A stretch of 64,000 nt of DNA from a virus (IMGVR_UViG_3300020578_005808:1-64000), one strand, 5' to 3'; counted from the first letter of the stretch, positions 9,727 to 24,723 are shown. Made by a program: numbers and translations. The notes: generated from the sequence alone by a model not told the origin.

Positions 9727-10509
9727 ATGAAATATTATATCAGAGGAGGAGTGGGAGATATTCTTCAATCTCTATGGTTTATTAAAACTTATCCCGAAAA
9801 AGAATTTATTGTTCACACTCATTATAAAGGAGCAAAAGAAATATTTTCTCATTTCGGCGCTAAGAACGCTCATTTTTATGAGTTTGATGATCTTGAAAGT
9901 CATAATACTCAAGTAGATTTCATAAAGGAAGATCATGCTAAAGAAAGCCAAAAAGACATTGCAGATACTCCAAGGGCATTCTATAGCGATTTTGATTTTG
10001 GCGCAGAAGCAAATGAGGCGGCTAAGAAATTAGTCGAATCATTTCAAGAACAAAAAAACATTATAGGAATTCATCCATTTAGAAGCGGCTTCGCCCAGTC
10101 TGTATATGATGATTTTAATCTACCCGCTAAGGAACTGCCAGTAGAAATCTCAAAAAACGTAATTAACGATAATAGTAATTATTTACTATTCGGTTCTAAA
10201 AATGAACTTCTTCAGTATGGAATACCAGAAAGCAAAAATGTAAAGTTTGTTTGCTTTAGCGATATTATTTATAGTTTAGCAACAGTAAAGTATTGCAAGA
10301 CTCTAGTTGGTCTCGATAGTTGTTTTAAAAGCATGTCCTCAATGCAAAGAATAAATACGATATGCATAATTGGTAATTTTAATGATCCAACTAGAGATTC
10401 TATGTTTATCAATCAGTATCAAAAAGATGGAGTAATGAAAGTATACAAAGTAAATAATATAGAGGAAGAGAAAGAAGAAATATCAGAGTTCATCACTAAG
10501 AATCTATAA
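9727..10509 (+). CDS. GT9 (heptosyltransferase)-like glycosyltransferase
   Basis: N-terminal RGGVGDIL, IGIHPF, LVGLDS motifs. Confidence 0.6.
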   Translation: MKYYIRGGVGDILQSLWFIKTYPEKEFIVHTHYKGAKEIFSHFGAKNAHFYEFDDLESHNTQVDFIKEDHAKESQKDIADTPRAFYSDFDFGAEANEAAKKLVESFQEQKNIIGIHPFRSGFAQSVYDDFNLPAKELPVEISKNVINDNSNYLLFGSKNELLQYGIPESKNVKFVCFSDIIYSLATVKYCKTLVGLDSCFKSMSSMQRINTICIIGNFNDPTRDSMFINQYQKDGVMKVYKVNNIEEEKEEISEFITKNL

Positions 10510-11186
10510 TGAAATCTTTTTACGCTCACATTGATCTGGGCGATTTAGTTTATTCTTTATATTATGCAAAAAAGCTAGGCTTTGAAAAATATATTATTGA
10601 TGGAGAAAGGGGAATTTGTAAATTTAACAATGAATCAAAAAAATTCATAAGTCCTTTTATATCTTCTCAACCTTATATTAAGGAAATTGAAGATTTTACC
10701 GGCCAGCCTTATGATGTAGATTATGGATCTCACCCCGAAGGAAAAGAAGTTGTAGTTGGAACAAATTTAGTAGAATATCACTCTTCCAAGTTTAAGATAG
10801 ACTGGAAAACCGTAAATGAAGCTTGGTTAACAGCCCATTCGATAAACATAAACAAAAAAGTAGTCATAAACAGAACTCCTAGATATCAAGGAAATTATTA
10901 CTTTTATAATGACTTTCTCAGGCATATTAATATAAGCGATTGTGTTTTTGTAGGACTTAAAAATGAATGGGAAAGATTTTGCTTTGAATTTAAAAAACCA
11001 GTCGATTATTACCCAACAACTTCATCTATTGAGTTAGCAGCTGTAATAAACGGGACTGAGTTTTTTCTCGGAAATCAATCCCTATCCTTAGCAATAGCCA
11101 CCGGATTAGGCAAAAGATGTTTTGTAGAAAAAGGACAACAATGCGCTAATTATATTTTCAACTCAAAAAAGATTGTATATTTTTAA
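10509..11186 (+). CDS. GT9-like glycosyltransferase
   Basis: DLGDLVYSL and LAAVING..FFLGNQSLSLAIA motifs. Confidence 0.6.
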   Translation: MKSFYAHIDLGDLVYSLYYAKKLGFEKYIIDGERGICKFNNESKKFISPFISSQPYIKEIEDFTGQPYDVDYGSHPEGKEVVVGTNLVEYHSSKFKIDWKTVNEAWLTAHSININKKVVINRTPRYQGNYYFYNDFLRHINISDCVFVGLKNEWERFCFEFKKPVDYYPTTSSIELAAVINGTEFFLGNQSLSLAIATGLGKRCFVEKGQQCANYIFNSKKIVYF

Positions 11187-11917
11187 TGAAAATTGCTGTA
11201 ACAAATATTTATACAAAAAACATAAAAGAGCTAGCAATAATAACAACAGAATATAACAAAAGAAAATATTGCGAAAAGCACGGCTACGATTTAATAGTGC
11301 AAACTGATAATTTTGCCCTCCCTCATTTAGGTTTTGAAAAATTAAACTTAATAAAAAATACTATCCAAACAAATAAATACGACTGGGTTTATTGGTGTGG
11401 CACAGACACCATGATAACAAATTATAAAATAAAACTAGAAGACATAATAGATGAAAATTATTGTTTTATAATCGCTCCCGACCTCTGGGATTGGAATGTA
11501 GATTCAATGTTGTTTAAAAACGACGAAAGAACAATTAGATTTCTAGAAACTATAATATCTCGATACTCAGACTATATAGACGAAAACGGGAATCCGAAAA
11601 TTAATAAAGTAAAAAGAAAAGATGGTAACTGGGTAGCTTGGGCTGAAAACGGAGCAATAATAGAAGAGTGTAAGGGAATTGATTTTACGACAACCATAAA
11701 GAAAGAGTATCAAAATTTCGTAAAAGAGGTCCCACAAAAAACAATGAACTCTTACTTGTATAATTTATATGCAACTCCAGAGCATTCAAAAAAATTAGAT
11801 TATCAAAATAGAAATGGACAATGGTCAAAAGGAGATTTTTTAGTGCATTGGCCGGGAACTCACAATAACCTAAAGTTGCAACTAGCTTTAGCAACAGTTC
11901 AACAAGTACAGGAGTAA
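11186..11917 (+). CDS. GT34 (GMA12/MNN10)-like glycosyltransferase, paralog 1
   Basis: KRKYCEKHGYDL, YDWVYWCGTDTMITN, GDFLVHWPG. Confidence 0.75.
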   Translation: MKIAVTNIYTKNIKELAIITTEYNKRKYCEKHGYDLIVQTDNFALPHLGFEKLNLIKNTIQTNKYDWVYWCGTDTMITNYKIKLEDIIDENYCFIIAPDLWDWNVDSMLFKNDERTIRFLETIISRYSDYIDENGNPKINKVKRKDGNWVAWAENGAIIEECKGIDFTTTIKKEYQNFVKEVPQKTMNSYLYNLYATPEHSKKLDYQNRNGQWSKGDFLVHWPGTHNNLKLQLALATVQQVQE

Positions 11918-11918
11918 A

Positions 11919-12650
11919 ATGAAAATTGCTTTAATAAATATATACACCACAAACATTAAAGAGCTAGCAGTTATAACAACAGAATTTAATAAAAGAAAGT
12001 ATTGTGAAAAACATCAATACGATTTAATAATAGAAACAAAAAATTTTTCGCTGCCTCACTTAGGATTTGAAAAGCTAGCTTTGATAAAAAGAACGCTTGA
12101 GTCTAATAAATATGATTGGGTTTATTGGTGCGGAACTGACACCATGATTACTAATTATAATATTAAAATAGAAGATTTAATTGACGATAACTATTCATTC
12201 ATAATAGCTCCGGACGTGTGGGATTGGAATTCTGATTCAATGCTCTTTAAAAATAGCAAAGAATCACTTCAATTTCTAGAGAAAGTTATTTCAAAATATG
12301 ATAAATACGTGGATGAAAATGGAAACGCAAAAAGCAATAACATAAAACTTAAAGATGGATGCACAATAACTTGGGGAGAACAAGCCGCTTTAATAGAAGA
12401 ATGCAAAGGAAAATTCTTTTCAACAGAAATAAAAGAAGAGTATAAAAATTTTGTTAAAGAAGTTCCGCAAAAAACAATGAACTCTTACCTGTATGAACTT
12501 TATCCAACTCCTTTTCACGCTCAAAAAAAGGATTATAGAGGAAGAAATGGAGAATGGTCTGAAGGTGATTTTTTAATGCACTGGCCCGGTACAAACAATA
12601 ATGCTAGAATTCAAATAGCGTTAAATATGATTAAACTAGTAAAAGAATAA
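11919..12650 (+). CDS. GT34-like glycosyltransferase, paralog 2 (tandem duplicate)
   Basis: Same length (243 aa) and long identical blocks with the preceding ORF. Confidence 0.75.
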   Translation: MKIALINIYTTNIKELAVITTEFNKRKYCEKHQYDLIIETKNFSLPHLGFEKLALIKRTLESNKYDWVYWCGTDTMITNYNIKIEDLIDDNYSFIIAPDVWDWNSDSMLFKNSKESLQFLEKVISKYDKYVDENGNAKSNNIKLKDGCTITWGEQAALIEECKGKFFSTEIKEEYKNFVKEVPQKTMNSYLYELYPTPFHAQKKDYRGRNGEWSEGDFLMHWPGTNNNARIQIALNMIKLVKE

Positions 12651-12651
12651 T

Positions 12652-13962
12652 ATGGATAGAATTTTAAATGAAATAAAAAAATACGCAGATGAAAACATAT
12701 TAAAGAAAAATTGGGAGGCCGGAAAAGACTGGGTTCAGTATTCAGGTCCTTATTTTTCATCAGATGAATATGTAGCGGCAGTTAAATCTTTACTAACCGG
12801 ATGGATAGTAATGTCAGAAGATTCATTATCTTTTGAAAATATTTTTCCTAAATATCTTGGAAAAGAATACGGCATCTTAACTAATAGCGGTAGTAGTTCA
12901 AATTTAATAATGATGTCTGCTTTGACATCTAAGCGTCTTTATAATTTACCTAAAGGAACAAAAGTTATTACTCCTATAGCTGGTTTTCCAACAACAATTA
13001 ATCCTATCTTTCAAGTTGGATTTGAGCCTCTTTTTGTTGATATAGAAATTGATACTTTGAATTTAAATTTAGACCAAGTAGAAGAGCAGGCTAAGAAAGG
13101 AGCAAGAGTAATCACATTTGCACATGTTTTGGGCAACCCACCAGACATGAATAGGTTAATGGAAATAGTAAAAGAATATGAATTAATCCTTTTAGAAGAT
13201 TGTTGCGACGCTTTAGGATCGTCTTATAACGGACAACTGCTAGGAAGCTATGGTGAATTTGCTAGTTGCAGTTTTTATCCAGCTCATCATATGACTATTG
13301 GCGAAGGAGGATTTGTTGCCTGCAACACAAAACAACAAGAAGTAATAGCTAGAAGTTTTAGAGAATGGGGGCGAGGATGTTATTGTGTTGGCAAGAAAGC
13401 TAACCTTTTAAAAAACGGGACATGCAATAAAAGGTTCCATAATTGGCTTCCTTCAATCCCAGATGAAATTTTTGATCATAAATATGTATACGATGAAATA
13501 GGATATAACTTAAAACCAATAGAATTACAAGCTTCTATAGGTTTGCAACAAATTAAAAAGCTCCCAGAAATCCACAATAGAAGAAAAGAAAACCACGCTT
13601 TATTAACTAATGTATTTAAAAAGCATGAAGAATTTTTCCATATTCCTATTGCTACTCCTTGCTCGGACCCCAGTTGGTTTGCGTTTGCTGTTACAATAAA
13701 AGGTTCATCTCCATTCAAGAGAAGACAGATCGTTGACTTTTTTGAAAGCAACAAGATTCAAACCAGACCATATTTTGCGGGAAACATTATGCTACAACCG
13801 GCTTATGAAGGTTATATTAGCAATGAAGATGTGATTAAGAAATTTCCAGTGTCAAGAAAGGTTACTTCAGACACCTTCTTTTTAGGAACTAGCCCAGTAA
13901 TATCATTGCCGCAAATACAATATATAGAAGAAAAACTTGATTTGTTTATTGCTAATCTGTAA
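12652..13962 (+). CDS. rfbH: NDP-4-keto-6-deoxyglucose 3-dehydrase (RfbH/DdhC, PLP/PMP-dependent)
   Basis: LTNSGSSSNL, EDCCDALGS, SFYPAHHMTIGEGG, EWGRGCYC, FDHKYVYDEIGYNLK. Confidence 0.9.
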   Translation: MDRILNEIKKYADENILKKNWEAGKDWVQYSGPYFSSDEYVAAVKSLLTGWIVMSEDSLSFENIFPKYLGKEYGILTNSGSSSNLIMMSALTSKRLYNLPKGTKVITPIAGFPTTINPIFQVGFEPLFVDIEIDTLNLNLDQVEEQAKKGARVITFAHVLGNPPDMNRLMEIVKEYELILLEDCCDALGSSYNGQLLGSYGEFASCSFYPAHHMTIGEGGFVACNTKQQEVIARSFREWGRGCYCVGKKANLLKNGTCNKRFHNWLPSIPDEIFDHKYVYDEIGYNLKPIELQASIGLQQIKKLPEIHNRRKENHALLTNVFKKHEEFFHIPIATPCSDPSWFAFAVTIKGSSPFKRRQIVDFFESNKIQTRPYFAGNIMLQPAYEGYISNEDVIKKFPVSRKVTSDTFFLGTSPVISLPQIQYIEEKLDLFIANL

Positions 13963-13973
13963 AATATTTTATT

Positions 13974-14933
13974 ATGTCTAAGGTGGTTTATATAACTGGT
14001 TGCTTGGGCCTTATTGGTTCTTATTTGACAAGAGCTTGCTTAAAGCAAGATTATTATGTAATTGGCATAGATAAAATTACATATGCTGCAAGACCAGATC
14101 TTTTAAATGAATTTTTGTCATATGAAAGATTTAAATTTGAAGAGCAAGACATTTGCGACATAAATAGACTTGTAGATTGTGATTATTTTATTAATGTTGC
14201 AGCCGAAACCCATGTTGATAATTCTATTAGAAAAAGCGATGAGTTTGTTAAATCTAATATAAACGGAGTTCATAATATTCTTGAACTTATCAAAGGATAT
14301 AAAAAGGAAGGTATTATTATTCCAACTCTACTTCATTTTAGCACCGATGAAGTTTATGGAGATATTTCTAGCGGCGAACATATTGAAACAGACTTACTGA
14401 AGCCAAGTAATCCTTATGCTGCCACAAAAGCCGCCGCAGATCAATTAATTTTAGCTTGGGCCAGAACTTACAAAATTCCATATGTAATAGTAAGACCTAC
14501 TAACAATTATGGAATTGGTCAATATGTAGAAAAACTTATACCTAAGACTTGCAAGTGCTTGACTCTAGATAGAAAGGTTCCCCTTCATAATAATGGTACT
14601 CCATATAGAAACTGGCTACATGCTAAAGATACCGCCGATGGAGTTCTAACAATAATAAACAGTGGAGTCAAGAATGAAATATTTAATATCGCAGGAGGCT
14701 TTGAACAAAGCAACATTGTAACTGTAGAAAAAATAATAACAGAATATTTCGGAAAACTTCCTAGTGATTATGTGGAAAAACATCTAGACCTTTCATTGTC
14801 TAGAGATGGCCAAGACGTAAGATATGCTCTTAATGATAACAAGCTGAGAGCTTTAGGTTGGAAGCCTAAATGCAATTTTGATAAAGAGCTAAAAGAAATC
14901 GTCAAATTTTATAAGAACAACTTTTTCTGGTAA
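13974..14933 (+). CDS. rfbB: dTDP-glucose 4,6-dehydratase-like
   Basis: TGCLGLIGS, AAETHVDNSI, STDEVYG, NPYAATKAAAD, QDVRYALN. Confidence 0.88.
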   Translation: MSKVVYITGCLGLIGSYLTRACLKQDYYVIGIDKITYAARPDLLNEFLSYERFKFEEQDICDINRLVDCDYFINVAAETHVDNSIRKSDEFVKSNINGVHNILELIKGYKKEGIIIPTLLHFSTDEVYGDISSGEHIETDLLKPSNPYAATKAAADQLILAWARTYKIPYVIVRPTNNYGIGQYVEKLIPKTCKCLTLDRKVPLHNNGTPYRNWLHAKDTADGVLTIINSGVKNEIFNIAGGFEQSNIVTVEKIITEYFGKLPSDYVEKHLDLSLSRDGQDVRYALNDNKLRALGWKPKCNFDKELKEIVKFYKNNFFW

Positions 14934-14938
14934 AAAGT

Positions 14939-15079
14939 ATGACAATAAAAGAAGTTTGCTAAAAAGTTCGATTATCTTTTATCAACAAATACAATATAAT
15001 ATTATTAAAACAAAATTACGATTTATTTATAGATGACAAAAATATAAACGCTAAAGATTTCGATAATCTGCCAATATGA
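14939..15079 (+). pseudogene. Remnant of a HAD-like (capsule biosynthesis) phosphatase gene with an in-frame nonsense codon
   Basis: Frame reads MTIKEVC*KVRLSFINKYNIILLKQNYDLFIDDKNINAKDFDNLPI*; YDLFIDDK motif; TGA overlaps the neuB-like ATG (ATGA). Confidence 0.6.
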
Positions 15080-16119
15080 ACAATCAAATTTTTGAAAATC
15101 TATTAATTTTAGAACTCGCCAATAATCATTGGGGATCGCTAGAAAGAGGCAAAAAGATAGTTAGAGAATTTGCTAAGGTCGTAAAAATTAATAGAGTAAA
15201 AGCGTCTATTAAACTTCAGTTTAGAGATGTAGATAATTTTATTCATAAAGACTTCAAAAATAATAATAGCAGATATATACAAAAAACTACTAAAACTAAA
15301 TTATCTTTCTCTGAGTTTAAAGAACTAATTACTTATATCAAAAAGCACGACTGTATTCCTATGGCTACTCCATTTGACGAAACATCCGTCGATTGGTGTG
15401 TGGAGCTAGATCTTCCTATAATTAAGATTGCTAGTTCAGATATTAATGATTGGTTGCTGATCAACAAGATTGCTACCACCAAAAAGCCTGTAATTATTTC
15501 TACTGGTGGAGCAAATGACAAGCAAATAGATGATGTAATTAAATTCTTTACAAATAGAAATATATCCATAGCAGTCAACCACTGCGTTTCTAAGTATCCC
15601 AGCTCAGATGACGAACTAGAGCTAAATCAGATAAACTATTTAAAAAATAAATATCCAGACCTCATAATTGGTCTTTCAACTCATGAGCATAATGATTGGC
15701 ACTCTTCGATGCTTATTTCTTATGCCAAGGGGGCTAGAACTTGGGAAAGACACATCGACATACCATACCCATCCAATCATGAGCAAAAAGAAGTTTCGCC
15801 TTATTGCTCTTTACCTCATCAAATAGATGAATGGTTTAAGGCTTTTAATAAAGCCGTTTCTATGTGCGGAACATCTTTAGAAAACAGAAGAGTTATAGAC
15901 GATAAAGAAATAAACTATTTAGAGTCTTTGTATAGAGGATTATATCTGAAGCAAGATTTGAAAAAAGGAAGCAAAATTTTTCTTAATAATATCTATAGCG
16001 CGATTCCTTATCAAAAAGAAATTGGGCATATTTCTTCTAGAGATTATTTTGATGGAGAATTTATTCTAAATAAGAATCTTAAAAAAGATAGCCCGCTTAC
16101 AAAAGACGACATTTCCTAA
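15076..16119 (+). CDS. NeuB-family PEP-dependent ulosonic acid synthase with SAF domain
   Basis: ELANNHWG, KLQFR, TPFD, KIASSD, IISTGG, HCVSKYP, ERHI. Confidence 0.88.
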   Translation: MNNQIFENLLILELANNHWGSLERGKKIVREFAKVVKINRVKASIKLQFRDVDNFIHKDFKNNNSRYIQKTTKTKLSFSEFKELITYIKKHDCIPMATPFDETSVDWCVELDLPIIKIASSDINDWLLINKIATTKKPVIISTGGANDKQIDDVIKFFTNRNISIAVNHCVSKYPSSDDELELNQINYLKNKYPDLIIGLSTHEHNDWHSSMLISYAKGARTWERHIDIPYPSNHEQKEVSPYCSLPHQIDEWFKAFNKAVSMCGTSLENRRVIDDKEINYLESLYRGLYLKQDLKKGSKIFLNNIYSAIPYQKEIGHISSRDYFDGEFILNKNLKKDSPLTKDDIS

Positions 16120-17855
16120 TGAAATTATCAGATATTGTTATAAATTTTCTTCAAGAAAAAAACATCGACACAGCCTTCACCGTATCTGGTGGAGGTTGTA
16201 TTCATTTGATAGACTCTCTTAGGAAGTCTAAACTATCTACATTTTGCGTTCACCATGAGCAAGCCGCACTAATGGCAAGTGAAGGCTACTTTAGGATGAA
16301 TAATAAAATGGCTGCCAATATTGTAACAACTGGACCGGGCGGCACAAACACTGTCACTGGCTTGCTTGGACTTTGGCTAGACAGCATACCATCAATTATT
16401 ATTTCTGGGCAAGTGCAGAAAAGCCAACTCTCTTCTGGCACCGGATGCCGCCAAATTGGAGATCAAGAGTTTGATATCACAAGCGTTGTTAAGCCAATGG
16501 TCAAATACGCTACTATGATTGTAGACCCTCAATCAATAGTAAAAGAATTAAATAAAGCTTATAATATTGCTTTGTCTGGCCGTCCGGGTCCAGTTTGGAT
16601 AGACATCCCATTAGATATGCAGGGATGCGATGTCAATTTAGAATTACTTTATCCCAATGAAGAGATTCAGACTACTCCAAAAGCCACTTCAAAACAATTA
16701 CTTGAGCTAGAGCAACTTCTCAGCAAATCAAAAAAGCCTCTTGCTATAGTTGGCAATGGAGTCAGACTTTCTGATTCTTATGATGAATTAAATAAGTTTC
16801 TAATTAAAAATGGAATCCCTGTTGTAACTGGACCTCATTCAGGGGTGGATTGCGTAGATAATACTTACGAATACTACTGCGGAAGAATCGGAATCTTGGG
16901 TCAACTTACTTCAAATCAAATAGTTCAACAAGCTGATCTTTTAATTTGCCTTGGATCAAGGCTTCCATTTAAGATGACAGGCTATAATATACCTGAATTT
17001 TCTCCAAATTCTAAAAAGGTTATTATTGATATAGATGGGTTTGAAATTAAAAAGCATAAATTTCAAGTAGATTTGCCAATTGTGTCAGACTTAAAGTTCT
17101 GCCTAAAAGAAATGAATACTTTTGATACAAACAAAAACTATTCCTCATGGCAGAAAAAGGTAAAATCTATTAGAAGGCATCAAAAGAATTTTCATCCAAA
17201 ACACAAAAATCTAAAAGACCATGCAAGCTTTTATTATTTAATTAGTAAGGCTCCTAAGTTTTTTGATAATGCACCAATTGTAACAAGCAACGGAACCGCC
17301 CACGTTATAACCCTTCAAACTTATAAATTAAATAAAAACCAAAGACTATTTACAAATGTTGGTTGCGCAAGTATGGGTTATGGCCTTCCGGCAGCAATTG
17401 GAGCTTGCATTGCAAATGATAAAAAACCAGTGATTTGCGTAGAAGGAGACGGCAGCATCATGATGAATCTCCAAGAGTTACAGACCATTAAAACATATAA
17501 TCTTCCTGTAAAAATCGTGCTGATTAATAACGACGGATATCTATCAATTAAACTATCTCAGGAATCATTTTTTAAAGGTCAAGAATTTGCCAGCGGCCCA
17601 TCTAATGGGGTTACCGTACCAGAATTTAAAAAGATAGCAAAAGCTTTTGGCATTCCATATCTTTCTATATCTAAGAATGGCCAAATAAATAACAATCTTA
17701 AAAAGATGATGAATTCATCTGGGCCAACTTTTGTTGAAGTATTTACTCACCCCAAAGAGCGGCATGAACCAAAAGTCACACACAAGGGAATCGACGCTAA
17801 TGGTAAAATCATACCCGGAACTTTGACAGATATGTTTATTTCTGATTCATTTTGA
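16119..17855 (+). CDS. ThDP-dependent enzyme, acetolactate synthase/YerE-like
   Basis: HHEQAALMASEGY, TTGPGGTN, GRPGPVWIDIPLD, GDGSIMMNLQEL...NN ThDP motif. Confidence 0.92.
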   Translation: MKLSDIVINFLQEKNIDTAFTVSGGGCIHLIDSLRKSKLSTFCVHHEQAALMASEGYFRMNNKMAANIVTTGPGGTNTVTGLLGLWLDSIPSIIISGQVQKSQLSSGTGCRQIGDQEFDITSVVKPMVKYATMIVDPQSIVKELNKAYNIALSGRPGPVWIDIPLDMQGCDVNLELLYPNEEIQTTPKATSKQLLELEQLLSKSKKPLAIVGNGVRLSDSYDELNKFLIKNGIPVVTGPHSGVDCVDNTYEYYCGRIGILGQLTSNQIVQQADLLICLGSRLPFKMTGYNIPEFSPNSKKVIIDIDGFEIKKHKFQVDLPIVSDLKFCLKEMNTFDTNKNYSSWQKKVKSIRRHQKNFHPKHKNLKDHASFYYLISKAPKFFDNAPIVTSNGTAHVITLQTYKLNKNQRLFTNVGCASMGYGLPAAIGACIANDKKPVICVEGDGSIMMNLQELQTIKTYNLPVKIVLINNDGYLSIKLSQESFFKGQEFASGPSNGVTVPEFKKIAKAFGIPYLSISKNGQINNNLKKMMNSSGPTFVEVFTHPKERHEPKVTHKGIDANGKIIPGTLTDMFISDSF

Positions 17856-17856
17856 T

Positions 17857-18489
17857 ATGAATGTATTTCTTACTGGAGCTAGTGGCGGAATAGGACAAGA
17901 GATTAAGTCTGTTTTAGCAGGAGACGGTGTCAATGTTATATCTTATTCTTCAAAAGAAATGGACCTTTCTGGAGATTACGATGTTTCTAATATTCCAACG
18001 CTTGATGGATTTATCCATGCGGCTGGCATAAATTCTTTGGCTTTCCACAACAGATTAAACCAAAATGAATTATTAAAACTCTTTAATATCAATGTTTTTA
18101 GCTTTGTGAATTTATGTTCTAAATTAAAATTTAATGATTGCGCGAACATTATAGCCATAGGATCTTTTTACGCAGAAAATACCAAAGAAAGCAGAATTCA
18201 ATATTCTATGTCAAAGCACGCTTTATTTGCTGCCGTGAAAACTATAGCTTTAGAAAAATCGCAAAATCTTATTAAAGTAAATATGGTCTCTCCGGGATTT
18301 GTAGATACAGCATTGACTAGGAAAAATAACTCAAGCGAAAGAATAAAAGACCTTCAATCAAACATACCACTAGGATTAGCGGAGCCAATTCATATTGCAA
18401 ATATGTGTTCTTATCTGATAAATAAAAATCATGGAATTACCGGCCAAAACATGCTAATAGATTGTGGGTACTCTTTAAAACACCTATGA
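17857..18489 (+). CDS. Short-chain dehydrogenase/reductase
   Basis: TGASGGIG, HAAGIN, YSMSK (YxxxK), VNMVSPGFVDT. Confidence 0.92.
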   Translation: MNVFLTGASGGIGQEIKSVLAGDGVNVISYSSKEMDLSGDYDVSNIPTLDGFIHAAGINSLAFHNRLNQNELLKLFNINVFSFVNLCSKLKFNDCANIIAIGSFYAENTKESRIQYSMSKHALFAAVKTIALEKSQNLIKVNMVSPGFVDTALTRKNNSSERIKDLQSNIPLGLAEPIHIANMCSYLINKNHGITGQNMLIDCGYSLKHL

Positions 18490-19511
18490 ACCATTCTTTT
18501 TCTATCAATGGCAAAACTTTTTCATGCTCTGATGAGGAGCTAGACCAACTAGAGATACAGTCACATCCTAGAAAATATTCTGTTTATTTTGACAAGTTCA
18601 ATAAAAACTTTCCTGAAAAGAGTGTTGTTCTTGCAGACCAGAAAGTAAAAAACCTATATAATATTAATCACCATACTGTAATATCTATAGAATCAATAGA
18701 AGAAAACAAAAATATAAAAACCGTTCTTGAAGTATGCGATACTTTGATGCGCGTTAATTTTGACAAGTCTTGGACTCTGTACGCTATTGGTGGCGGCATA
18801 ATTCAAGACATAGCAGCGTTTACATCTAAGATTTTTAAGAGAGGAATTGATTGGGTATTTGTTCCTACTACATTGCTATCTCAATGCGATAGCTGTATAG
18901 GCGGTAAAACTGCTCTTAATTTTAACCAATATAAAAATCAATTGGCTTTGTATTCAGCCCCGAAGAGCGTTATCATCGATGTTGATTTTTTGCAAAGCCT
19001 GTCTTTTCAAGATATAGTTTCTGGATATGGAGAAATTGTAAAGCTGTTTTTGATTGGTGGAGATTTTTATATTGAGAATCTGCATTCTTTTTCTTTAAAG
19101 CAGGCGATTTTTCATTCATTAATGATAAAAAAAGCTGTCGTAGAATTTGATGAGTTCGAAAATTTAGAAAGAAAGTCTTTAAACTATGGCCATTCTTTCG
19201 GTCACGCAATAGAATCTGCCGCGAACTACAGCATCCCACATGGAGAGGCTGTGCTACTTGGTATTGAAATAATCAATAAGCTATTCACAAACTCAAAAGA
19301 CATATCAAATATAATATCTAGATATACAAGTTTAAACAAAATCAAGCATTTAGATTCTTTTAAATTAATCAATAGCCTAAAGACAGACAAAAAGATATCA
19401 GGAGGCAGAATATCTTTTGTCGTTGTTGATGACCCGGGAAATACTATTTTTCTAGATAGTCCTATAGATGAAAAATTAGAGCGCAAAATTCATGACATAC
19501 TTACTAATTGA
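18486..19511 (+). CDS. 3-dehydroquinate synthase-like sugar-phosphate cyclase
   Basis: GGGIIQD, PTTLLSQCDSCIGGKT, DEFENLERKSLNYGHSFGHAIE, HGEAV; start placed at ATG 18486 (ATGA overlap with SDR). Confidence 0.88.
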   Translation: MNHSFSINGKTFSCSDEELDQLEIQSHPRKYSVYFDKFNKNFPEKSVVLADQKVKNLYNINHHTVISIESIEENKNIKTVLEVCDTLMRVNFDKSWTLYAIGGGIIQDIAAFTSKIFKRGIDWVFVPTTLLSQCDSCIGGKTALNFNQYKNQLALYSAPKSVIIDVDFLQSLSFQDIVSGYGEIVKLFLIGGDFYIENLHSFSLKQAIFHSLMIKKAVVEFDEFENLERKSLNYGHSFGHAIESAANYSIPHGEAVLLGIEIINKLFTNSKDISNIISRYTSLNKIKHLDSFKLINSLKTDKKISGGRISFVVVDDPGNTIFLDSPIDEKLERKIHDILTN

Positions 19512-20439
19512 TTTTGGAGCTTCATTTATTAAAGTTGCGTCTTATGATAATGTTTCTAAGAAAATAAAAAACCTAGAAACAACAAACTCTCCTTTCCAAA
19601 ATAAATATCAAGTCAAGGCAACCGAAATAGAAAATATATTAAAAAATATAGTAGAAAGAAATTCTCCAGCGGATGGAATTCTTTGCTGCTCAATCCTAGG
19701 AGGATCTTATCACGGGCAATGCTACCACTCATGGAAAGATAATCCTTATAAAGAACATCAATCTTGCGTCATAAGCGGAGTATTTTACGATAGCCCAAAC
19801 TATCACGTTCACTCTCATTTTTCTAAAAACGGAACTAAAGACCTGAAAGTTTTAGGCCATATAAATAGCATTCCAGTTTTTACATGTTTAGGAGATACCA
19901 ATTGCGTAATTGAGTCTTTGCCTCTAGATGATAAAAATCTATGCATCAATATTGGCACTGGATCTCAAGTTATATATCTGAAAGACAACGAAGTCCAAAC
20001 CCATAAATTCATTCCGGCAGGAAGGGCGCTTTTAACTTTTAAGAATTTCTTTGATTCAATTGGAGTTGATTTTTTTAAGTTATTAAATGAAACATCTTTT
20101 GAAGATGTAATAAATTCTAATCTAAAAGTAGACCTAAATGTTTTCAAGCAATCCCACCAATATAATGGAGGAGGCAGTATACTTAGGATAAACGAAGAAA
20201 GTTTTTCTGCTAATAATTTAACTGGATCTATTTTAAAAAACTTAGTGCTTCAATATGAAAAATATATTGCCAGCTCCGGAAAGCGAAAAATATTACTAAG
20301 CGGTGGAATTCCTAAGAAAATTAAAATTTTACCAGATTTATTTAGACATTTTTATCCCTGCTTTGAAGTTTCCCTTTTGTCTGGCGACATAGAAGCTACC
20401 CATATCGGCCTAGCTAAATACATAAATAAATATTTATGA
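19492..20439 (+). CDS. FGGY/ASKHA carbohydrate kinase (sedoheptulokinase-like)
   Basis: LIDFGASFIK, LGDTNC, INIGTGSQV, LSGG motifs. Confidence 0.7.
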   Translation: MTYLLIDFGASFIKVASYDNVSKKIKNLETTNSPFQNKYQVKATEIENILKNIVERNSPADGILCCSILGGSYHGQCYHSWKDNPYKEHQSCVISGVFYDSPNYHVHSHFSKNGTKDLKVLGHINSIPVFTCLGDTNCVIESLPLDDKNLCINIGTGSQVIYLKDNEVQTHKFIPAGRALLTFKNFFDSIGVDFFKLLNETSFEDVINSNLKVDLNVFKQSHQYNGGGSILRINEESFSANNLTGSILKNLVLQYEKYIASSGKRKILLSGGIPKKIKILPDLFRHFYPCFEVSLLSGDIEATHIGLAKYINKYL

Positions 20440-21206
20440 GAATTTTAATTACCGGATCTAATGGATACATAGCAAAAGCAATTATTAAATGTTTAAAACA
20501 AGAACATTCTATAACGTGCTTATCTAGAGCCGAAGCGGATCTTACTTCTATTGATAAAGTTAATGCTTTTTTTGATAAGCATGAATCTTTCGATGCATTG
20601 ATACATACGGCTATAACCGGCGGCAGAAGATTAAAATCCGAAAATGGAGACACTATAGATCAAAACATTAAAATGTATTATAATCTGCTAGAAAATAAAA
20701 ACAGTTTTGAAAGATTTATCTCTTTTGGATCCGGAGCAGAGCTATTAGCTTTAGATACGCCTTATGGAATAAGCAAAAGACTCATAGCTGATTCTATGAA
20801 GTTCAAGGATAAGTTTACTAATTTAAGAATATTTGGTTGCTTTGATCATAATGAATTAGACAATAGATTTATCAAAGGGAACATATTACGATATATAAAT
20901 AAAGAGCCAATACAAATATATGAAAACAAGAAAATGGACTTCTTCTTCATGGATGATTTGATTTCTTTAGTCAAATATTGTTTAGTTCACGACTCCCCAC
21001 CTAAAGAAATTAACTGCTCATATAAAGAAAAATATTCCCTGCATCAAATAGCCGAAATAATAAATCGTTTGGGCGCTCATAATGTTTCTATTTTTTCAAA
21101 TAATTTATCTGGCAAAGATTATATTGGCGAGTCCAATTTGCCGATTGAACACATTGGGCTGGAAAAAGGTATTAGATCTGTTTATAATAAATTAGTTAAT
21201 TCATAA
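20436..21206 (+). CDS. NAD-dependent epimerase/dehydratase (extended SDR)
   Basis: ITGSNGYIA, SFGSGAE, PYGISKR, NLRIFG. Confidence 0.88.
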   Translation: MRILITGSNGYIAKAIIKCLKQEHSITCLSRAEADLTSIDKVNAFFDKHESFDALIHTAITGGRRLKSENGDTIDQNIKMYYNLLENKNSFERFISFGSGAELLALDTPYGISKRLIADSMKFKDKFTNLRIFGCFDHNELDNRFIKGNILRYINKEPIQIYENKKMDFFFMDDLISLVKYCLVHDSPPKEINCSYKEKYSLHQIAEIINRLGAHNVSIFSNNLSGKDYIGESNLPIEHIGLEKGIRSVYNKLVNS

Positions 21207-21258
21207 AAAAATATGTTTTCCGCAGATGTTTTCTGTAACGTTTAAATAAAATATAATT

Positions 21259-22167
21259 ATGATATTTGAAGCTTCAATGTTTTTTCAAGAGAATGATCTT
21301 TTAGAAATTAAATTAAACCAACACTGGGAATTTGTTGATAAATTTATAATTGTTGAAGCTGGAGAAACACACACAGGAATCAAAAAGAACTTTTTATTTA
21401 ATCACCAAAGATTCAAGAAATACTCTGACAAAATAGTATATAAGTCTTTTAATTCTTTTCAAGAGATTTACGATTTGTATCCAAACATAATCTCTAAACA
21501 TATTTATAAAACCGTAAGTTCGCAGCCTCATCTTAATTTAAATGACTGGATAAGAGACCATCTGCAAGCCGAATATTTGACTGTAGCTTTATTGGAGCAG
21601 CAACCGAAAGATTCAGATATTGTTTTATTTACATGTCTAGATGAAGTATTAAATGAATACGCTTTCTCAGAGGCTAAAAATATTTTTTCAGAAAATAAAA
21701 CCTATAACCTTTATTCTCATTTAGAAAAAAGATATATCACTAATTCTTGCGACTATGCTCCCGTATTTGGATTCGACTTAGATATGTATGTTTATAAATT
21801 AAATCTATTTAGTAAGAAAACCCCAGTCGGCTGCATGACGCTGTTTTCTAATTTAAATAAAATTAAGCACACTGAACTTAGATATTTTTCTCTATCTACC
21901 CATCATCCAATAGAAAACGCCGGATGGCACTTTACTTTTTTAGATGATACTAGAGGCGAAAAAGCTTTAAAAAAATATAAAAGCTGGGCGCACTCAAGAG
22001 ACGGAGGGCATGATGTATCTTATTTTGATATTAATACTCCTTTAGAAGCGGAGCGAAGAGTGTTATCAGATTACAATACTCAAATGGTTCAAATATCTTC
22101 TAAAACTCACCCTGAATGGCTAATGAATAATCTATCCAAATATTCTAGCTATATTTATTCTACTTGA
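21259..22167 (+). CDS. GT17-like glycosyltransferase
   Basis: FFQENDLLEIKL..VDKFIIVEAGETHTG, LDEV, AGWHFTF. Confidence 0.8.
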   Translation: MIFEASMFFQENDLLEIKLNQHWEFVDKFIIVEAGETHTGIKKNFLFNHQRFKKYSDKIVYKSFNSFQEIYDLYPNIISKHIYKTVSSQPHLNLNDWIRDHLQAEYLTVALLEQQPKDSDIVLFTCLDEVLNEYAFSEAKNIFSENKTYNLYSHLEKRYITNSCDYAPVFGFDLDMYVYKLNLFSKKTPVGCMTLFSNLNKIKHTELRYFSLSTHHPIENAGWHFTFLDDTRGEKALKKYKSWAHSRDGGHDVSYFDINTPLEAERRVLSDYNTQMVQISSKTHPEWLMNNLSKYSSYIYST

Positions 22168-22178
22168 ATATAATCAAT

Positions 22179-23240
22179 ATGAAAAAAATTCTTATCACTG
22201 GTATTTTAGGTCAGGATGGAGCAAACATGGCTGAATATTTGCTCCAGAATACTGAGTATTTAATTTTTGGCATGATGCGAAGAAGTTCTAATCCTAATTT
22301 TAAAAACTGCGAAAAGTTTTATAATAATTCCAGATTTCAATTCGTTTATGGAGATTTAACGGATAGCGTTAGCATCGATTCTCTTGTTTCAAATATCCAG
22401 CCAGATTATCTTATTAATTTTGGAGCCCAAAGTTTTGTGGGATGTAGTTGGGATATGCCTTTGCAAACTTTTGAGGTTAATGCTACTGGAGTTTTAAAAT
22501 GCTTAGAAGCAATTAGAAAAAATAAACCAAGTTGTCGATTTTATTCAGCTGGATCATCGGAAGAGTTTGGGGATGTTTTAACTATACCTCAAGATATTAA
22601 TCATCCGCTACGACCAAGGAGTCCATATGGAGCTTCTAAAGCTGCTGCGAGAAGCATAGTAAAAGTATATAGAGAATCGTATGGTTTATATGCTGTACAT
22701 GGAATATTATTTAATCACGAAGGAACAAAACGAGGAGAAGAGTTTGTTACAAGAAAAATAACGAAAGGAGTAGCTAGAATAGTAAAATCTCTTAAAGAAA
22801 ATACACCTTTTTCTCCAATCGAATTAGGAAATTTGGAGTCTAAAAGAGATTGGTCCGATAGTGAAGATTTTGTAGACGGAGTTTGGAAAATGCTTAATCA
22901 AGAAAAGCCAAAAGACTTTGTTCTCTCAAGCAATGAAACTCATTCAATAAGAGAATTCGTTGAACTTGCTTTTAAATACGCAAACATTGAAGGAGCATGG
23001 CACGGAAACGGAATAATGGAAGAATTCTCTTTATCGGGAGAAATGAAATCAATTTATAATTTTCAATCATCAATCCTAGTTAAAATAAATCCAAAATTTT
23101 ATAGACCAGCTGAAGTAGATTTATTAATTGGAGACTCAAATCCTGCAAGAGGAGAACTAGGATGGAGTCCAAAAGTATCATTTAATGAGCTAGTTAAAAA
23201 AATGGTTGAAAACGACATTCATCTCTTGACTAATGCTTAG
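22179..23240 (+). CDS. gmd: GDP-mannose 4,6-dehydratase
   Basis: ITGILGQDG, SSEEFG, PRSPYGASK, GILFNHE, GEEFVTRKIT, FYRPAEVDLLIGD; start placed at ATG 22179. Confidence 0.95.
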   Translation: MKKILITGILGQDGANMAEYLLQNTEYLIFGMMRRSSNPNFKNCEKFYNNSRFQFVYGDLTDSVSIDSLVSNIQPDYLINFGAQSFVGCSWDMPLQTFEVNATGVLKCLEAIRKNKPSCRFYSAGSSEEFGDVLTIPQDINHPLRPRSPYGASKAAARSIVKVYRESYGLYAVHGILFNHEGTKRGEEFVTRKITKGVARIVKSLKENTPFSPIELGNLESKRDWSDSEDFVDGVWKMLNQEKPKDFVLSSNETHSIREFVELAFKYANIEGAWHGNGIMEEFSLSGEMKSIYNFQSSILVKINPKFYRPAEVDLLIGDSNPARGELGWSPKVSFNELVKKMVENDIHLLTNA

Positions 23241-23255
23241 GTCTATCAATACTTT
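23226..23255 (+). promoter_or_regulatory. sigma70-type promoter heading the replication operon
   Basis: TTGACT within the last gmd codons; AATACT/TACTTT -10; GTG start 33 nt from the first T. Confidence 0.6.
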
Positions 23256-23258
23256 AAC

Positions 23259-23609
23259 GTGCCAGAAGGCAAAAAGCCTAGAAAATTAAGCAATCATCAA
23301 AAATTAATTATTGCATTTCTTGTAGATCATCAGAAATGTAATTGGGCTAATGAGATGAGGATAGCAAATAAACTCATCAAAGAGCATGGCTTTGAATTTT
23401 TGATATCCCTAAAAGGCAGGACTAAATTAATATCTTTAGTTTGGTTTCTTGGCGAAAACGGTAAAAAGTTCCTAAACGATATTAAAAAATATCAATCTCT
23501 TTCTTTCAAAAAAGAAACTTACCAATTAGAAGAACAGCCTGTCGCCCCACCAGTCGAGATAGAAAAAAAGCCTAAAACAGTTCAAGAATTTTTAAACCTA
23601 TTTAAATAA
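23259..23609 (+). CDS. Hypothetical protein
   Basis: 116-aa ORF, GTG start, coupled to recA. Confidence 0.7.
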   Translation: MPEGKKPRKLSNHQKLIIAFLVDHQKCNWANEMRIANKLIKEHGFEFLISLKGRTKLISLVWFLGENGKKFLNDIKKYQSLSFKKETYQLEEQPVAPPVEIEKKPKTVQEFLNLFK

Positions 23610-23610
23610 T

Positions 23611-24723
23611 ATGGCAAGACCTAAAAAAGAATCTACCGAATCTACGGCAATCGAGTCTAAAAACAAACTTAAAGTTTTAGATGAAATTTTAAATCAAAAC
23701 AAAGACTACCATTATGCTTTTGACAATAATATAGACTATGTCGTTAGCAGCGGCAGCCTTACTATGGACATAGAAATGGGCGGAGGCATTCACCCCGGAA
23801 TTGTTCGATCCTCTGGAATCACAGAGGGAGGGAAAACAAGCAACGCTCTTTCTTTTGCGAAAAACTTTCAGATTCTTCATCCAGAAAAGGGTTGTGTGAT
23901 ATATGTAAAGTCAGAAGGAAGATTAAGCGAAGAAATGGTCAAGAGATCTGGAGTTGATACTGATCCAGAAAAATGGAGAGTTATTCCTACAAACGATTAT
24001 GAATTTGTTATTGATAAGATGAGAAGACTTATCAAAGATAACGACGACGGGAATATCTACTTCTTTATTTTAGACAGTTTAGATGCTTTAGTACCTCGCA
24101 ATGATTTAGCAAAATCAGCAACTGAAGCTAATAAAACTGCAGGTGCAGCTTTGCTTACCGCAGATCTTTTAAGGAAGATGGCCGCTGCATTTTCAGCAAG
24201 AGGGCATATTTGTTTTATTATATCTCAAGTAAGATCTTCTATTAAGATAAATCCTTATGAGAAAGGAGATCCAAAAGTTACCAACGCAAGCGGTGGAAAT
24301 GCAGCTCTTCATTATTCTGATTGGATTTTAGAGTTTCAGCAAAGGTGGAATAAAGATCTAATTTACGCTACGGCAAAACAGGATGGCAATCCTGTTGGTC
24401 ATTGGTGCAAGGTTATCTTTAGGAAAACTCCAAATGAAAAATCAGGAAGAGAAATTCGATATCCTATTAAATATGGAAGAACGAATGGATCTAGTATTTG
24501 GATAGAATACGAAGTTGTAGACCAATTATTGGCTTGGGAGTTCGCTCACGCTAAGGGAGCTTGGATTACTATAACTGACGAACTAATTAAAGAGTTGTCT
24601 GATAATGGTTTAGAAATGCCGAAGCAACATCAGGGAGAAGCAAATCTAAAAAACTTCCTCGAAGAAAATCAAACCATCACCAAATATCTCTTTAATAAGT
24701 TTATCAGTGTTTTAAAGAAATGA
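23611..24723 (+). CDS. recA: RecA/UvsX-like recombinase
   Basis: SSGSLTMDIEMGGG, Walker A GITEGGKT, Walker B FILDSLDAL, ISQVR, GGNAALHYS. Confidence 0.92.
   Translation: MARPKKESTESTAIESKNKLKVLDEILNQNKDYHYAFDNNIDYVVSSGSLTMDIEMGGGIHPGIVRSSGITEGGKTSNALSFAKNFQILHPEKGCVIYVKSEGRLSEEMVKRSGVDTDPEKWRVIPTNDYEFVIDKMRRLIKDNDDGNIYFFILDSLDALVPRNDLAKSATEANKTAGAALLTADLLRKMAAAFSARGHICFIISQVRSSIKINPYEKGDPKVTNASGGNAALHYSDWILEFQQRWNKDLIYATAKQDGNPVGHWCKVIFRKTPNEKSGREIRYPIKYGRTNGSSIWIEYEVVDQLLAWEFAHAKGAWITITDELIKELSDNGLEMPKQHQGEANLKNFLEENQTITKYLFNKFISVLKK

Follow-up and report, generated by a model that had tools for sequence, protein, structure and literature searches.

In the scheme set out for acyl-branched sugars, decarboxylation of a keto acid accompanies its attachment to C4 of an NDP-4-keto-3,6-dideoxyhexose, after which the resulting ketone is reduced (Steitz 2022, PMC9306805). 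For yersiniose, RfbH, YerE, and YerF suffice; erwiniose, caryophyllose, and gastriose involve RfbF/G/H together with an enzyme that forms the keto acid, a YerE-like enzyme, and a reductase (PMC9306805). JanthE, a YerE-like enzyme, takes long and functionalised 2-keto acids as well as ketone acceptors (PMC12188165, PMC12247030). In the LOS locus of Mycobacterium marinum, MMAR_2329, annotated as a "3-dehydroquinate synthase family protein", has as neighbours the aldolase MMAR_2331, the ThDP enzyme MMAR_2332, and RfbF/H/G (MMAR_2334-2336; PMC12395582 supplement), and caryophyllose itself bears an open 1,3,4,5-tetrahydroxyhexyl chain that is 2'- and 6'-deoxy (PMC5706390). Our search for main texts dealing with M. 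marinum LOS together with dehydroquinate synthase returned nothing useful.

The window analysed here, 64,000 nucleotides from an uncultured aquatic phage (IMGVR_UViG_3300020578_005808:1-64000), quite likely carries an acyl-branched-sugar pathway, which would be a novel variant of this known pathway type. A sequence-only reading had pointed to six translationally coupled genes at 15076-21206, interpreted as a possible pathway to a carbocyclic sugar. The six ORFs called there (15076-16119, 16119-17855, 17857-18489, 18462/18486-19511, 19492-20439, and 20436-21206) are all intact and on the + strand, and their coupling is confirmed: the first two overlap by 1 nt, the second and third are 1 nt apart, and the three junctions that follow are overlaps of 4 nt (from ATG 18486), 20 nt, and 4 nt. 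The start at ATG 18486 matches that of the database relatives of the fourth protein, which are 341 aa long. Pfam and NCBIfam matches in this region comprise NeuB, TPP_enzyme_N/M/C, adh_short, DHQ_synthase with DHQS_C, and Epimerase. The real unit is larger, and begins at 12652 with an RfbH-like gene and a 4,6-dehydratase gene, making eight genes up to 21206, listed here with their immediate context.

11186-12650, + strand: two tandem GT34-like glycosyltransferase genes, context (Pfam Glyco_transf_34, E ~1e-11 each)
12652-13962, + strand: RfbH/E1-like PMP-dependent NDP-4-keto-6-deoxyhexose 3-dehydrase (NCBIfam RfbH, PDB 3BCX)
13974-14933, + strand: NDP-glucose 4,6-dehydratase, RmlB-like, not RfbG-like (Pfam GDP_Man_Dehyd and Epimerase)
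15076-16119, + strand: NeuB-family PEP-dependent synthase (Pfam NeuB, 137.6 bits)
16119-17855, + strand: YerE-like ThDP-dependent carboligase, putative branching enzyme (three TPP domains, JanthE match)
17857-18489, + strand: short classical SDR, candidate ketoreductase (Pfam adh_short)
18486-19511, + strand: dehydroquinate synthase (DHQS)-like enzyme of a TIGR04425-related paralogue clade (TIGR04425 and aroB models, tree)
19492-20439, + strand: minimal FGGY-type sugar kinase, 315 aa (motifs, bacterial homologues, AlphaFold/Foldseek)
20436-21206, + strand: short extended-SDR, RmlD-like reductase, candidate YerF-like (Pfam Epimerase and RmlD_sub_bind)
21259-23240, + strand: GT17-like glycosyltransferase and GDP-mannose 4,6-dehydratase, context (Glyco_transf_17, 46.8 bits; gmd model, 361 bits)

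A scan for promoters and terminators across 12000-23700 gave no clear excess over shuffles.

The gene set is not confined to this phage. RfbH, NeuB-like, ThDP, SDR, DHQS-like, and kinase genes were found together in about 20 genomes of bacteria and 25 phage contigs of IMG/VR; the arrangement is thus not due to chance, and the view that the six genes form one pathway is supported. ThDP and DHQS-like genes occur jointly on 51 IMG/VR contigs, the version with NeuB and kinase on 25. About 26 further viral contigs have the SDR, DHQS-like, ThDP, and reductase genes without NeuB or kinase, and in the single one of them inspected (L142) an HpcH aldolase occupies the NeuB/kinase place; related loci likewise show HpcH or HMGL-like aldolases where the phage has its NeuB-like synthase. 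The 4,6-dehydratase is kept at 59-84% identity in most cassette-bearing phage contigs, the RmlD-like reductase is conserved next to the RfbH or ThDP gene in bacterial and viral loci, and in 76 of the 84 loci the DHQS-like gene has an SDR of the 17857-18489 family no more than 9 kb away, usually directly upstream. Among GenBank phages, megablast with 12000-24000 found no match, and a tblastn search of phage records with the DHQS-like protein returned distant aroB genes only, many of them in apparently bacterial sequences deposited as phage.

These loci also bear on a reading in which two unrelated pathways merely adjoin, RfbH, ThDP, and reductase giving a yersiniose-type C2-branched sugar from pyruvate, and NeuB-like, kinase, DHQS-like, and SDR giving a separate ulosonic acid or cyclitol. 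Such a division would agree with the short list of enzymes required for yersiniose (PMC9306805), with the sister clade of the DHQS-like enzyme, which operates without a ThDP enzyme in CMP-transferase loci, and with one locus (L006) that has NeuB-like, SDR, DHQS-like, and kinase genes with no ThDP gene nearby. Nevertheless, we consider it quite improbable, given that in the NeuB+kinase clade of the DHQS-like enzyme the ThDP gene is alongside in 25 loci of viruses and about 20 of bacteria, with RfbH in most, that translational coupling embraces all six genes, and that the window has no CMP- or NDP-transferase that could serve a second product.

The acceptor arm, in which the 4,6-dehydratase and the RfbH-like enzyme would yield NDP-4-keto-3,6-dideoxyglucose, is a well-supported prediction, since the two adjacent genes correspond to the supply of the NDP-4-keto-3,6-dideoxyhexose in the known scheme. 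The RfbH-like protein exceeds the NCBIfam RfbH cut-off (443.8 bits, cut-off 423), has Y. pseudotuberculosis E1 as best PDB match (3BCX, E 8e-98, ~50% identity), and retains the His-for-Lys "YPAHH" motif and the four Fe-S cysteines, with a longer loop preceding the last Cys. The dehydratase scores 291 bits with the dTDP-glucose 4,6-dehydratase model (cut-off 365) versus 63 bits with the CDP-glucose dehydratase model; because it is RmlB-like, we leave the nucleotide carrier at either dTDP or CDP. RfbF (glucose-1-phosphate cytidylyltransferase) is present in bacterial versions of the gene set, whereas tblastn with bacterial RfbF gave no match in the window, and three of four whole related phage records had no match to the nucleotidyltransferase family PF00483. 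This absence counts against an acyl-branched-sugar pathway, as does the lack in the window of an E3-type reductase for RfbH.

The ThDP enzyme occupies the carboligase position of the scheme by similarity. Its best PDB match is JanthE of Janthinobacterium sp. HH01 (8RPH), aligned over the full length with 355.8 bits, versus 257 bits for acetolactate synthases, and it has a GDG ThDP motif where JanthE, its nearest relative, has CDG. The full-length match suggests a YerE-like, sugar-branching carboligase closest to JanthE. Both reductases have intact motifs, TGASGGIG and YSMSK in the 17857-18489 SDR, TGSNGYI and YGISK in the 20436-21206 protein, and their roles were assigned by gene-neighbourhood logic alone: the former, which constantly accompanies the DHQS-like enzyme, is proposed to be a ketoreductase acting on the product of that enzyme, and the latter may be the YerF-like enzyme that reduces the C1' ketone of the branch.

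In the keto-acid-forming position, the phage set has no aldolase and a NeuB-like synthase instead, whose gene co-occurs with the kinase and DHQS-like genes. This protein shares the NeuB-family TIM barrel and PEP-dependent condensation chemistry with the nonulosonic acid synthases NeuB, PseI, and LegI, but it falls far under the equivalog cut-offs (PseI model 139 bits versus 340; NeuB model 122 versus 400), and is nearest to the subfamily of the uncharacterised structure 3G8R, its best PDB match (188 bits, versus 79 bits for PseI). The window holds no homologue of CTP_transf_3, i.e. no CMP-synthetase partner, and with scores this low we rejected a sialic, pseudaminic, or legionaminic acid pathway.

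The fifth gene had been called a sedoheptulokinase-like FGGY kinase. The phage protein itself has no Pfam match and, with 315 aa, has lost about 110 residues of the bacterial form, but its longer bacterial homologues match FGGY_N/FGGY_C and, in the PDB, xylulokinase and glycerol kinase. The motifs DFGAS, GD..C, GTGSQ, and SGGIP are retained in the kinase alignment (A2), and the AlphaFold model (pLDDT 92.9) has glycerol, gluconate, and xylulose kinases as top Foldseek matches (TMq 0.64-0.73). The FGGY assignment thus probably holds, as the homologues match this family and the predicted fold matches it best, whereas nothing in these matches favours a sedoheptulokinase.

The DHQS-type motif ascribed to the fourth gene is there, as DEFENLERKSLNYGHSFGHAIE, and the protein retains the residues binding the carboxylate and phosphate of DAHP and the zinc ion. 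It scores 282 bits with TIGR04425, an "AroB-related putative sugar phosphate phospholyase" (cut-off 400), and 229.8 bits with the aroB model TIGR01357 (cut-off 305). Its bacterial homologues of the NeuB+kinase type reach 311-312 with TIGR04425, and among the other homologues tested the aldolase/ThDP type reaches 424 and the CMP-transferase type 381-466. In the tree, the phage protein falls in a phage-dominated NeuB+kinase subclade, sister to the TIGR04425 clade. The aligned Zn, NAD, and DAHP ligand positions of DHQS, which we take to be R130, D146, K152, N162, E194, K250, R264, N268, H271, H275, H287, and K356 in A. nidulans numbering, are all invariant across the DHQS-like clades and AroB, and the DHQS-like clade adds its own conserved residues W131, C145, I146, and G190. 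When 401 genomes from the phylum of an actinobacterial MAG were sampled, only two TIGR04425-like matches appeared.

In formal terms, the chemistry of PEP condensation and then of a DHQS fold whose active site is of the DHQS type fits an auxiliary metabolic module, in which a DAHP-synthase-like step and DHQS would raise the host flux to shikimate and aromatic amino acids. We rejected this reading, which we regard as very improbable. The DHQS-like protein is below the aroB cut-off and, where genomes have both, belongs to a different clade from the housekeeping AroB; its bacterial homologues score 253-285 bits with the aroB model, versus 345-365 for the true aroB, and a separate aroB above cut-off is present in five of five bacterial genomes carrying the DHQS-like gene. 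The glycan loci in which it always lies contain RfbH, ThDP, and glycosyltransferase genes, and, as the sequence-only reading had noted, no other shikimate gene was found among the ORFs scanned (5273-36922). By its sequence relationships, the DHQS-like enzyme is a glycan-locus paralogue and probably not a shikimate enzyme. An EEVS/DOIS-type cyclitol pathway was also rejected, as the carboxylate-binding residues are retained and DHQS is the better PDB match (144 bits, versus 84 for DOIS and ValA).

The kinase, NeuB-like, and DHQS-like enzymes may plausibly act on one ulosonate phosphate, as had been suggested, given the DAHP carboxylate- and phosphate-binding residues kept in the last of them. 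That suggestion went on to a carbasugar, formed when the DHQS-like enzyme cyclises a DAHP-like ulosonate phosphate made by the kinase and the NeuB-like enzyme, so that a carbocyclic sugar or a carbocycle-bearing branch results, either free or after ThDP coupling. Several points favour ring closure: all catalytic and DAHP-binding residues of DHQS are conserved, the characterised members of the superfamily all cyclise (we know of none that does not), and the NCBI label of the nearest model reads "(cyclizing)". Carbocyclic LPS sugars also exist, such as caryose, made by the same bacterium as caryophyllose. Nevertheless, DHQS-type ring closure consumes the C2 ketone, which is required by the YerE-like ThDP enzyme here and by the CMP-transferases of the sister clade, which need a 2-ulosonic acid. 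The clades of the DHQS-like enzyme track their partners, being found with ThDP and aldolase, with NeuB, kinase, and ThDP, or with CMP-transferase, and all these partner types require a free 2-keto acid. Moreover, the caryophyllose of M. marinum is acyclic even though its locus holds a DHQS-family gene (likened to the phage gene by family annotation), and the window showed no enzyme that would activate a free cyclitol. With RfbH and a YerE-like ThDP enzyme always in the set, and the latter needing an open 2-keto acid, a carbasugar end product is not supported; this part of the earlier interpretation is probably wrong, and we judge the carbasugar pathway unlikely. That the DHQS-like enzyme truly closes a ring, whether its substrate is the free ulosonate phosphate or the coupled side chain with sugar C4 replacing the DAHP carboxylate, also seems rather unlikely. 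If it did, phages and bacteria would make a carbocycle-bearing, caryose- or bradyrhizose-like sugar of hitherto undescribed biosynthesis, and this would be the first viral carbasugar pathway.

We suggest instead that the DHQS-like step may be a non-cyclising deoxygenation in which phosphate is eliminated without ring closure, a proposal made by analogy that we hold to be evenly balanced. It follows from the need of the partner enzymes for an intact 2-keto acid and from the open chain of M. marinum caryophyllose, with its DHQS-family gene. Against it, no sequence feature of the enzyme points to a loss of cyclisation, and the enol-pyranose intermediate of DHQS cyclises spontaneously. Literature searches under the TIGR04425 name, on dehydroquinate synthase with nonulosonic acids, and on sugar phosphate cyclase with O-antigen yielded nothing useful, nor did those on aurantose beyond one review.

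Taken as a whole, we think it reasonably probable that the eight genes (12652-21206) serve to make an acyl-branched 3,6-dideoxyhexose like yersiniose, erwiniose, or caryophyllose, by a pathway with a non-aldolase donor arm. The RmlB-like 4,6-dehydratase and the RfbH-like enzyme would convert host-made NDP-glucose into NDP-4-keto-3,6-dideoxyglucose. In the donor arm, the NeuB-like synthase would join PEP to a small aldose, most simply a tetrose, to give a 3-deoxy-2-ulosonic acid, the choice of aldose, and hence the chain length, being a guess. The FGGY kinase would add a terminal phosphate, on the aldose or on the acid, and the DHQS-like enzyme would bind the DAHP-like acid, oxidise it via its bound NAD+, and eliminate the phosphate without consuming the C2 ketone. 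The SDR would reduce the remaining ketone to an omega-deoxy 2-keto-3-deoxy acid, for example 3,7-dideoxyheptulosonate. The NeuB-like, kinase, DHQS-like, and SDR enzymes would thus stand in for the usual aldolase as the source of the keto acid. The YerE-like enzyme would decarboxylate this tailored acid and add the acyl anion at C4 of the keto-sugar, the RmlD-like reductase would finally reduce the C1' ketone of the branch, and the neighbouring phage glycosyltransferases may move the sugar onto its target, the host envelope or the virion.

Such a pathway shares the logic of acceptor, ThDP transfer, and ketoreduction with yersiniose A (YerE/YerF) and erwiniose (ErwE/F/I/J), whose donors, however, are pyruvate or simple aldolase products, with no kinase, NeuB-like, or DHQS-like tailoring enzyme described. 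The caryophyllose sub-cluster of M. marinum, in which mutants of MMAR_2331 to MMAR_2333 accumulate LOS-II*, is closer, having, as in the phage, RfbH, a 4,6-dehydratase, a YerE-like ThDP enzyme, and a DHQS-family gene, together with an enzyme that forms the keto acid, for which the phage has its NeuB-like candidate. A C3 unit derived from PEP or pyruvate combined with omega-deoxygenation would yield exactly the deoxy pattern of caryophyllose, and the branch predicted for the phage (2'-deoxy, terminally deoxy) has this same pattern. The two nevertheless differ in the origin of the keto acid, from an HpcH/citrate-lyase-type aldolase in M. marinum and from a NeuB-like PEP-dependent synthase with an FGGY kinase in the phage; the phage-encoded set also has an RmlB-like dehydratase and no cytidylyltransferase. 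Compared to AroB and the sugar-phosphate cyclases (DOIS, EEVS, DDGS), the DHQS-like enzyme has the fold and the NAD and metal site in common and keeps all the DAHP contacts of AroB, but it differs in its paralogue clade with W131, C145, I146, and G190, in always being paired with an SDR in glycan loci, and in the proposed outcome, deoxygenation in place of ring closure.

Mycobacteria and plant pathogens have acyl-branched sugars, caryophyllose among them, as surface antigens, and the in vitro evidence for the biosynthesis of these sugars concerns the ThDP coupling step only. The gene set suggests where a long, terminally deoxygenated side chain could come from, namely a DAHP-like acid dephosphorylated by a non-cyclising paralogue of dehydroquinate synthase, which, if true, would be a new reaction outcome in a textbook enzyme family. 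In biocatalysis, the enzymes might be used to make chiral tertiary alcohols and deoxy-ulosonic acids. Many uncultured aquatic phages bear the whole putative route (51 IMG/VR contigs with ThDP and DHQS-like genes, 25 with NeuB and kinase), and it may therefore be common for phages to direct the synthesis of rare sugars for glycans of the host surface or the virion.

The region at 12652-21206 holds eight genes, all on the + strand, the last six of which (15076-21206) are linked by overlaps or a 1-nt gap; the sequence-only reading had described these six as translationally coupled.

12652-13962, + strand, RfbH-like dehydrase, scoring over NCBI's RfbH cut-off
13974-14933, + strand, RmlB-like 4,6-dehydratase (family scan)
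15076-16119, + strand, NeuB-family protein, far under the NeuB and PseI cut-offs
16119-17855, + strand, ThDP enzyme with three domains (family scan)
17857-18489, + strand, short SDR (family scan)
18486-19511, + strand, DHQ_synthase-fold protein, here DHQS-like (family scan)
19492-20439, + strand, 315-aa protein without Pfam match
20436-21206, + strand, short RmlD-like reductase (family scan)

The gene set reported earlier for 15076-21206 is confirmed, and the DHQS-type motif is present in the DHQS-like protein as DEFENLERKSLNYGHSFGHAIE. The exception is the label "sedoheptulokinase" for the 315-aa protein, whose 430-aa bacterial homologues match FGGY_N, FGGY_C, xylulokinase, and glycerol kinase. 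The phage kinase keeps the ASKHA ATPase motifs and lacks about 110 residues found in these homologues, the deletion falling in domain I; its predicted structure (pLDDT 92.9) has FGGY kinases as closest folds. This minimal FGGY form is common to all of the phage-clade copies aligned.

The cassette is conserved as one unit. Searching IMG/VR with the DHQS-like protein gave four contigs in which the gene run recurs at 57-81% identity, and a profile scan widened the viral set to 68 contigs with a DHQS-like gene. The ThDP gene is also present in 51 of these 68, RfbH, ThDP, and DHQS-like genes occur together in 35, and the entire NeuB, ThDP, SDR, DHQS-like, and kinase core is found in 25. Among bacteria, searched as one genome per species, the bearers are Brachyspira, Brevinemataceae, Elusimicrobia, Gastranaerophilales, and alphaproteobacterial MAGs, the commonest order being RfbF, RfbG, RfbH, reductase, SDR, DHQS-like, FGGY, NeuB-like, ThDP. 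In 76 of 84 loci the DHQS-like gene has an SDR of this family at most 9 kb away, as a rule directly upstream of it. Some loci have an HpcH/HpaI aldolase (e.g. viral contig L142) and others an HMGL-like protein in place of the NeuB-like and kinase genes; further loci without RfbH and ThDP have a CMP-transferase, an HpcH aldolase, an SIS isomerase, and more oxidoreductases instead. The Brachyspira loci L011-L013, which have no NeuB-like gene, combine a 274-aa HMGL-like aldolase with an FGGY kinase, and a CTP_transf_3 gene ends their operon.

The window comes from an uncultured aquatic phage, has 28-36% G+C, and carries genes for a split DnaE-type polymerase, ribonucleotide reductase, DnaB, primase, and a sigma factor. 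It also encodes two GT34-like, one GT17-like, and one GT4-like glycosyltransferases and a GDP-mannose dehydratase. The GT34-like genes are tandem paralogues of 243 aa each (11186-11917 and 11919-12650), immediately 5' of RfbH, whereas L001, the closest relative, has a single copy. Three conserved ORFs of 260, 225, and 116 aa (9727-11186 and 23259-23609) flank the sugar genes, and none gave a match in a Pfam scan, even at E 0.05.

The eight genes make up a coherent pathway. The best solved relative of the ThDP enzyme is JanthE (8RPH; 355.8 bits over the full length, against 257 bits for acetolactate synthases), a YerE-like enzyme that couples 2-keto acid donors with ketones (PMC12188165, PMC12247030). 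E1 of Yersinia pseudotuberculosis shares about 50% identity with the RfbH-like protein, in which the four cluster cysteines and the His that stands in for the usual PLP lysine are kept; the window showed no E3-type reductase for RfbH. Steitz et al. 2022 put forward one scheme for the branched sugars erwiniose, caryophyllose, and gastriose, and tested parts of it: a YerE-like enzyme joins the CDP-4-keto-3,6-dideoxyglucose from RfbF/G/H to a functionalized 2-keto acid produced by an aldolase, and the branch ketone is reduced afterwards (PMC9306805). The phage cassette agrees with this scheme except in where the keto acid comes from. Together with the gene neighborhoods, this makes a branched-sugar pathway the probable reading of the cassette; we found no description of the NeuB-like, kinase, and DHQS-like steps in the accessible literature.

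No nucleotidyltransferase was found in the window, nor in three of four related phages scanned as whole records, one of them rated 100% complete, so that the phage must depend on NDP-glucose from its host. The dehydratase (13974-14933), RmlB-like (dTDP-glucose-type) and not RfbG-like, points to dTDP as a possible carrier in place of CDP. The bacterial cassettes L007-L022 have RfbF and an RfbG-like CDP-glucose dehydratase only 22-27% identical to the phage enzyme. Since these phages mostly lack any nucleotidyltransferase and have an RmlB-like dehydratase, the carrier may have switched between the bacterial and phage cassettes.

The DHQS-like protein scores 282 bits against TIGR04425 (cut-off 400) and 230 bits against aroB (cut-off 305). 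A separate aroB over cut-off is present in each of the five homologue-bearing bacterial genomes tested; one Elusimicrobium genome has the homologue without a separate aroB. In an alignment of 84 homologues with five true AroB proteins, the residues binding zinc, the DAHP phosphate, and the DAHP carboxylate are all invariant, so that the substrate would most simply be a DAHP-like 3-deoxy-2-ulosonate omega-phosphate, which NeuB-type condensation and the kinase could deliver. W131, C145, I146, and G190 are clade-specific. The family tree, rooted on AroB, shows three clades that track the partner (ThDP with aldolase; NeuB with kinase and ThDP; CMP-transferase), and the window's protein falls in a phage-dominated branch of the NeuB and kinase clade. 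Two loci on MAG contigs labelled Bacteroidetes and Cyclobacteriaceae (L005, L006) have DHQS-like and short-kinase genes nested within the phage subclade, which may reflect mis-binning of phage contigs or point to the host. In L006 the NeuB-like and SDR genes are each present twice, with neither ThDP nor RfbH within 8 kb. A third widespread cassette, with true TIGR04425 proteins, occurs in Pelagibacteraceae, Bacteroides, Leptospira, and nine viral contigs (L024, L058, L079, L033, and others; viral L136-L141, L148-L150). It comprises a GFO/IDH/MocA oxidoreductase, SIS isomerase, D-2-hydroxyacid dehydrogenase, SDR, DHQS-like protein, CTP_transf_3 cytidylyltransferase, and HpcH aldolase, often with DUF386, PF04199, and a Maf-like PF01973 protein, and resembles a pathway to a CMP-activated deoxy-ulosonic acid not described before.

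All characterized relatives of the DHQS-like enzyme are cyclases, which would suit the carbasugar pathway proposed from the sequence. Nevertheless, DHQS-type ring closure destroys the 2-keto acid that all of its constant partners require, namely the ThDP decarboxylase-ligase here and, in the sister clade, the CMP-transferase. The gene set of that proposal is real and coherent, but a carbasugar is an unlikely product. Ring closure is also disfavored by the Mycobacterium marinum LOS locus, which contains, according to the RefSeq annotation in a published expression table, the "3-dehydroquinate synthase family protein" MMAR_2329 beside an aldolase (MMAR_2331), a ThDP enzyme (MMAR_2332), and RfbF/H/G (MMAR_2334-2336), with the housekeeping aroB, MMAR_2177, away from the locus (PMC12395582). 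The sugar of this locus, caryophyllose, is 3,6-dideoxy-4-C-(D-altro-1,3,4,5-tetrahydroxyhexyl)-D-xylo-hexose, whose open side chain ends in a methyl group and is deoxygenated at 2', the position that corresponds to C3 of the keto acid (PMC5706390). Both this locus and the phage cassette have DHQS-family, ThDP, and RfbH genes, the likeness of MMAR_2329, a candidate caryophyllose gene, being one of annotation and neighborhood. We therefore regard cyclization by the DHQS-like enzyme as improbable and favor a non-cyclizing, 4,6-dehydratase-like outcome, to which we give about an even chance. A heptulosonate 7-phosphate would lose its phosphate at this step and the ketone would be reduced next, giving a terminal methyl as in caryophyllose, which would explain the obligatory SDR.
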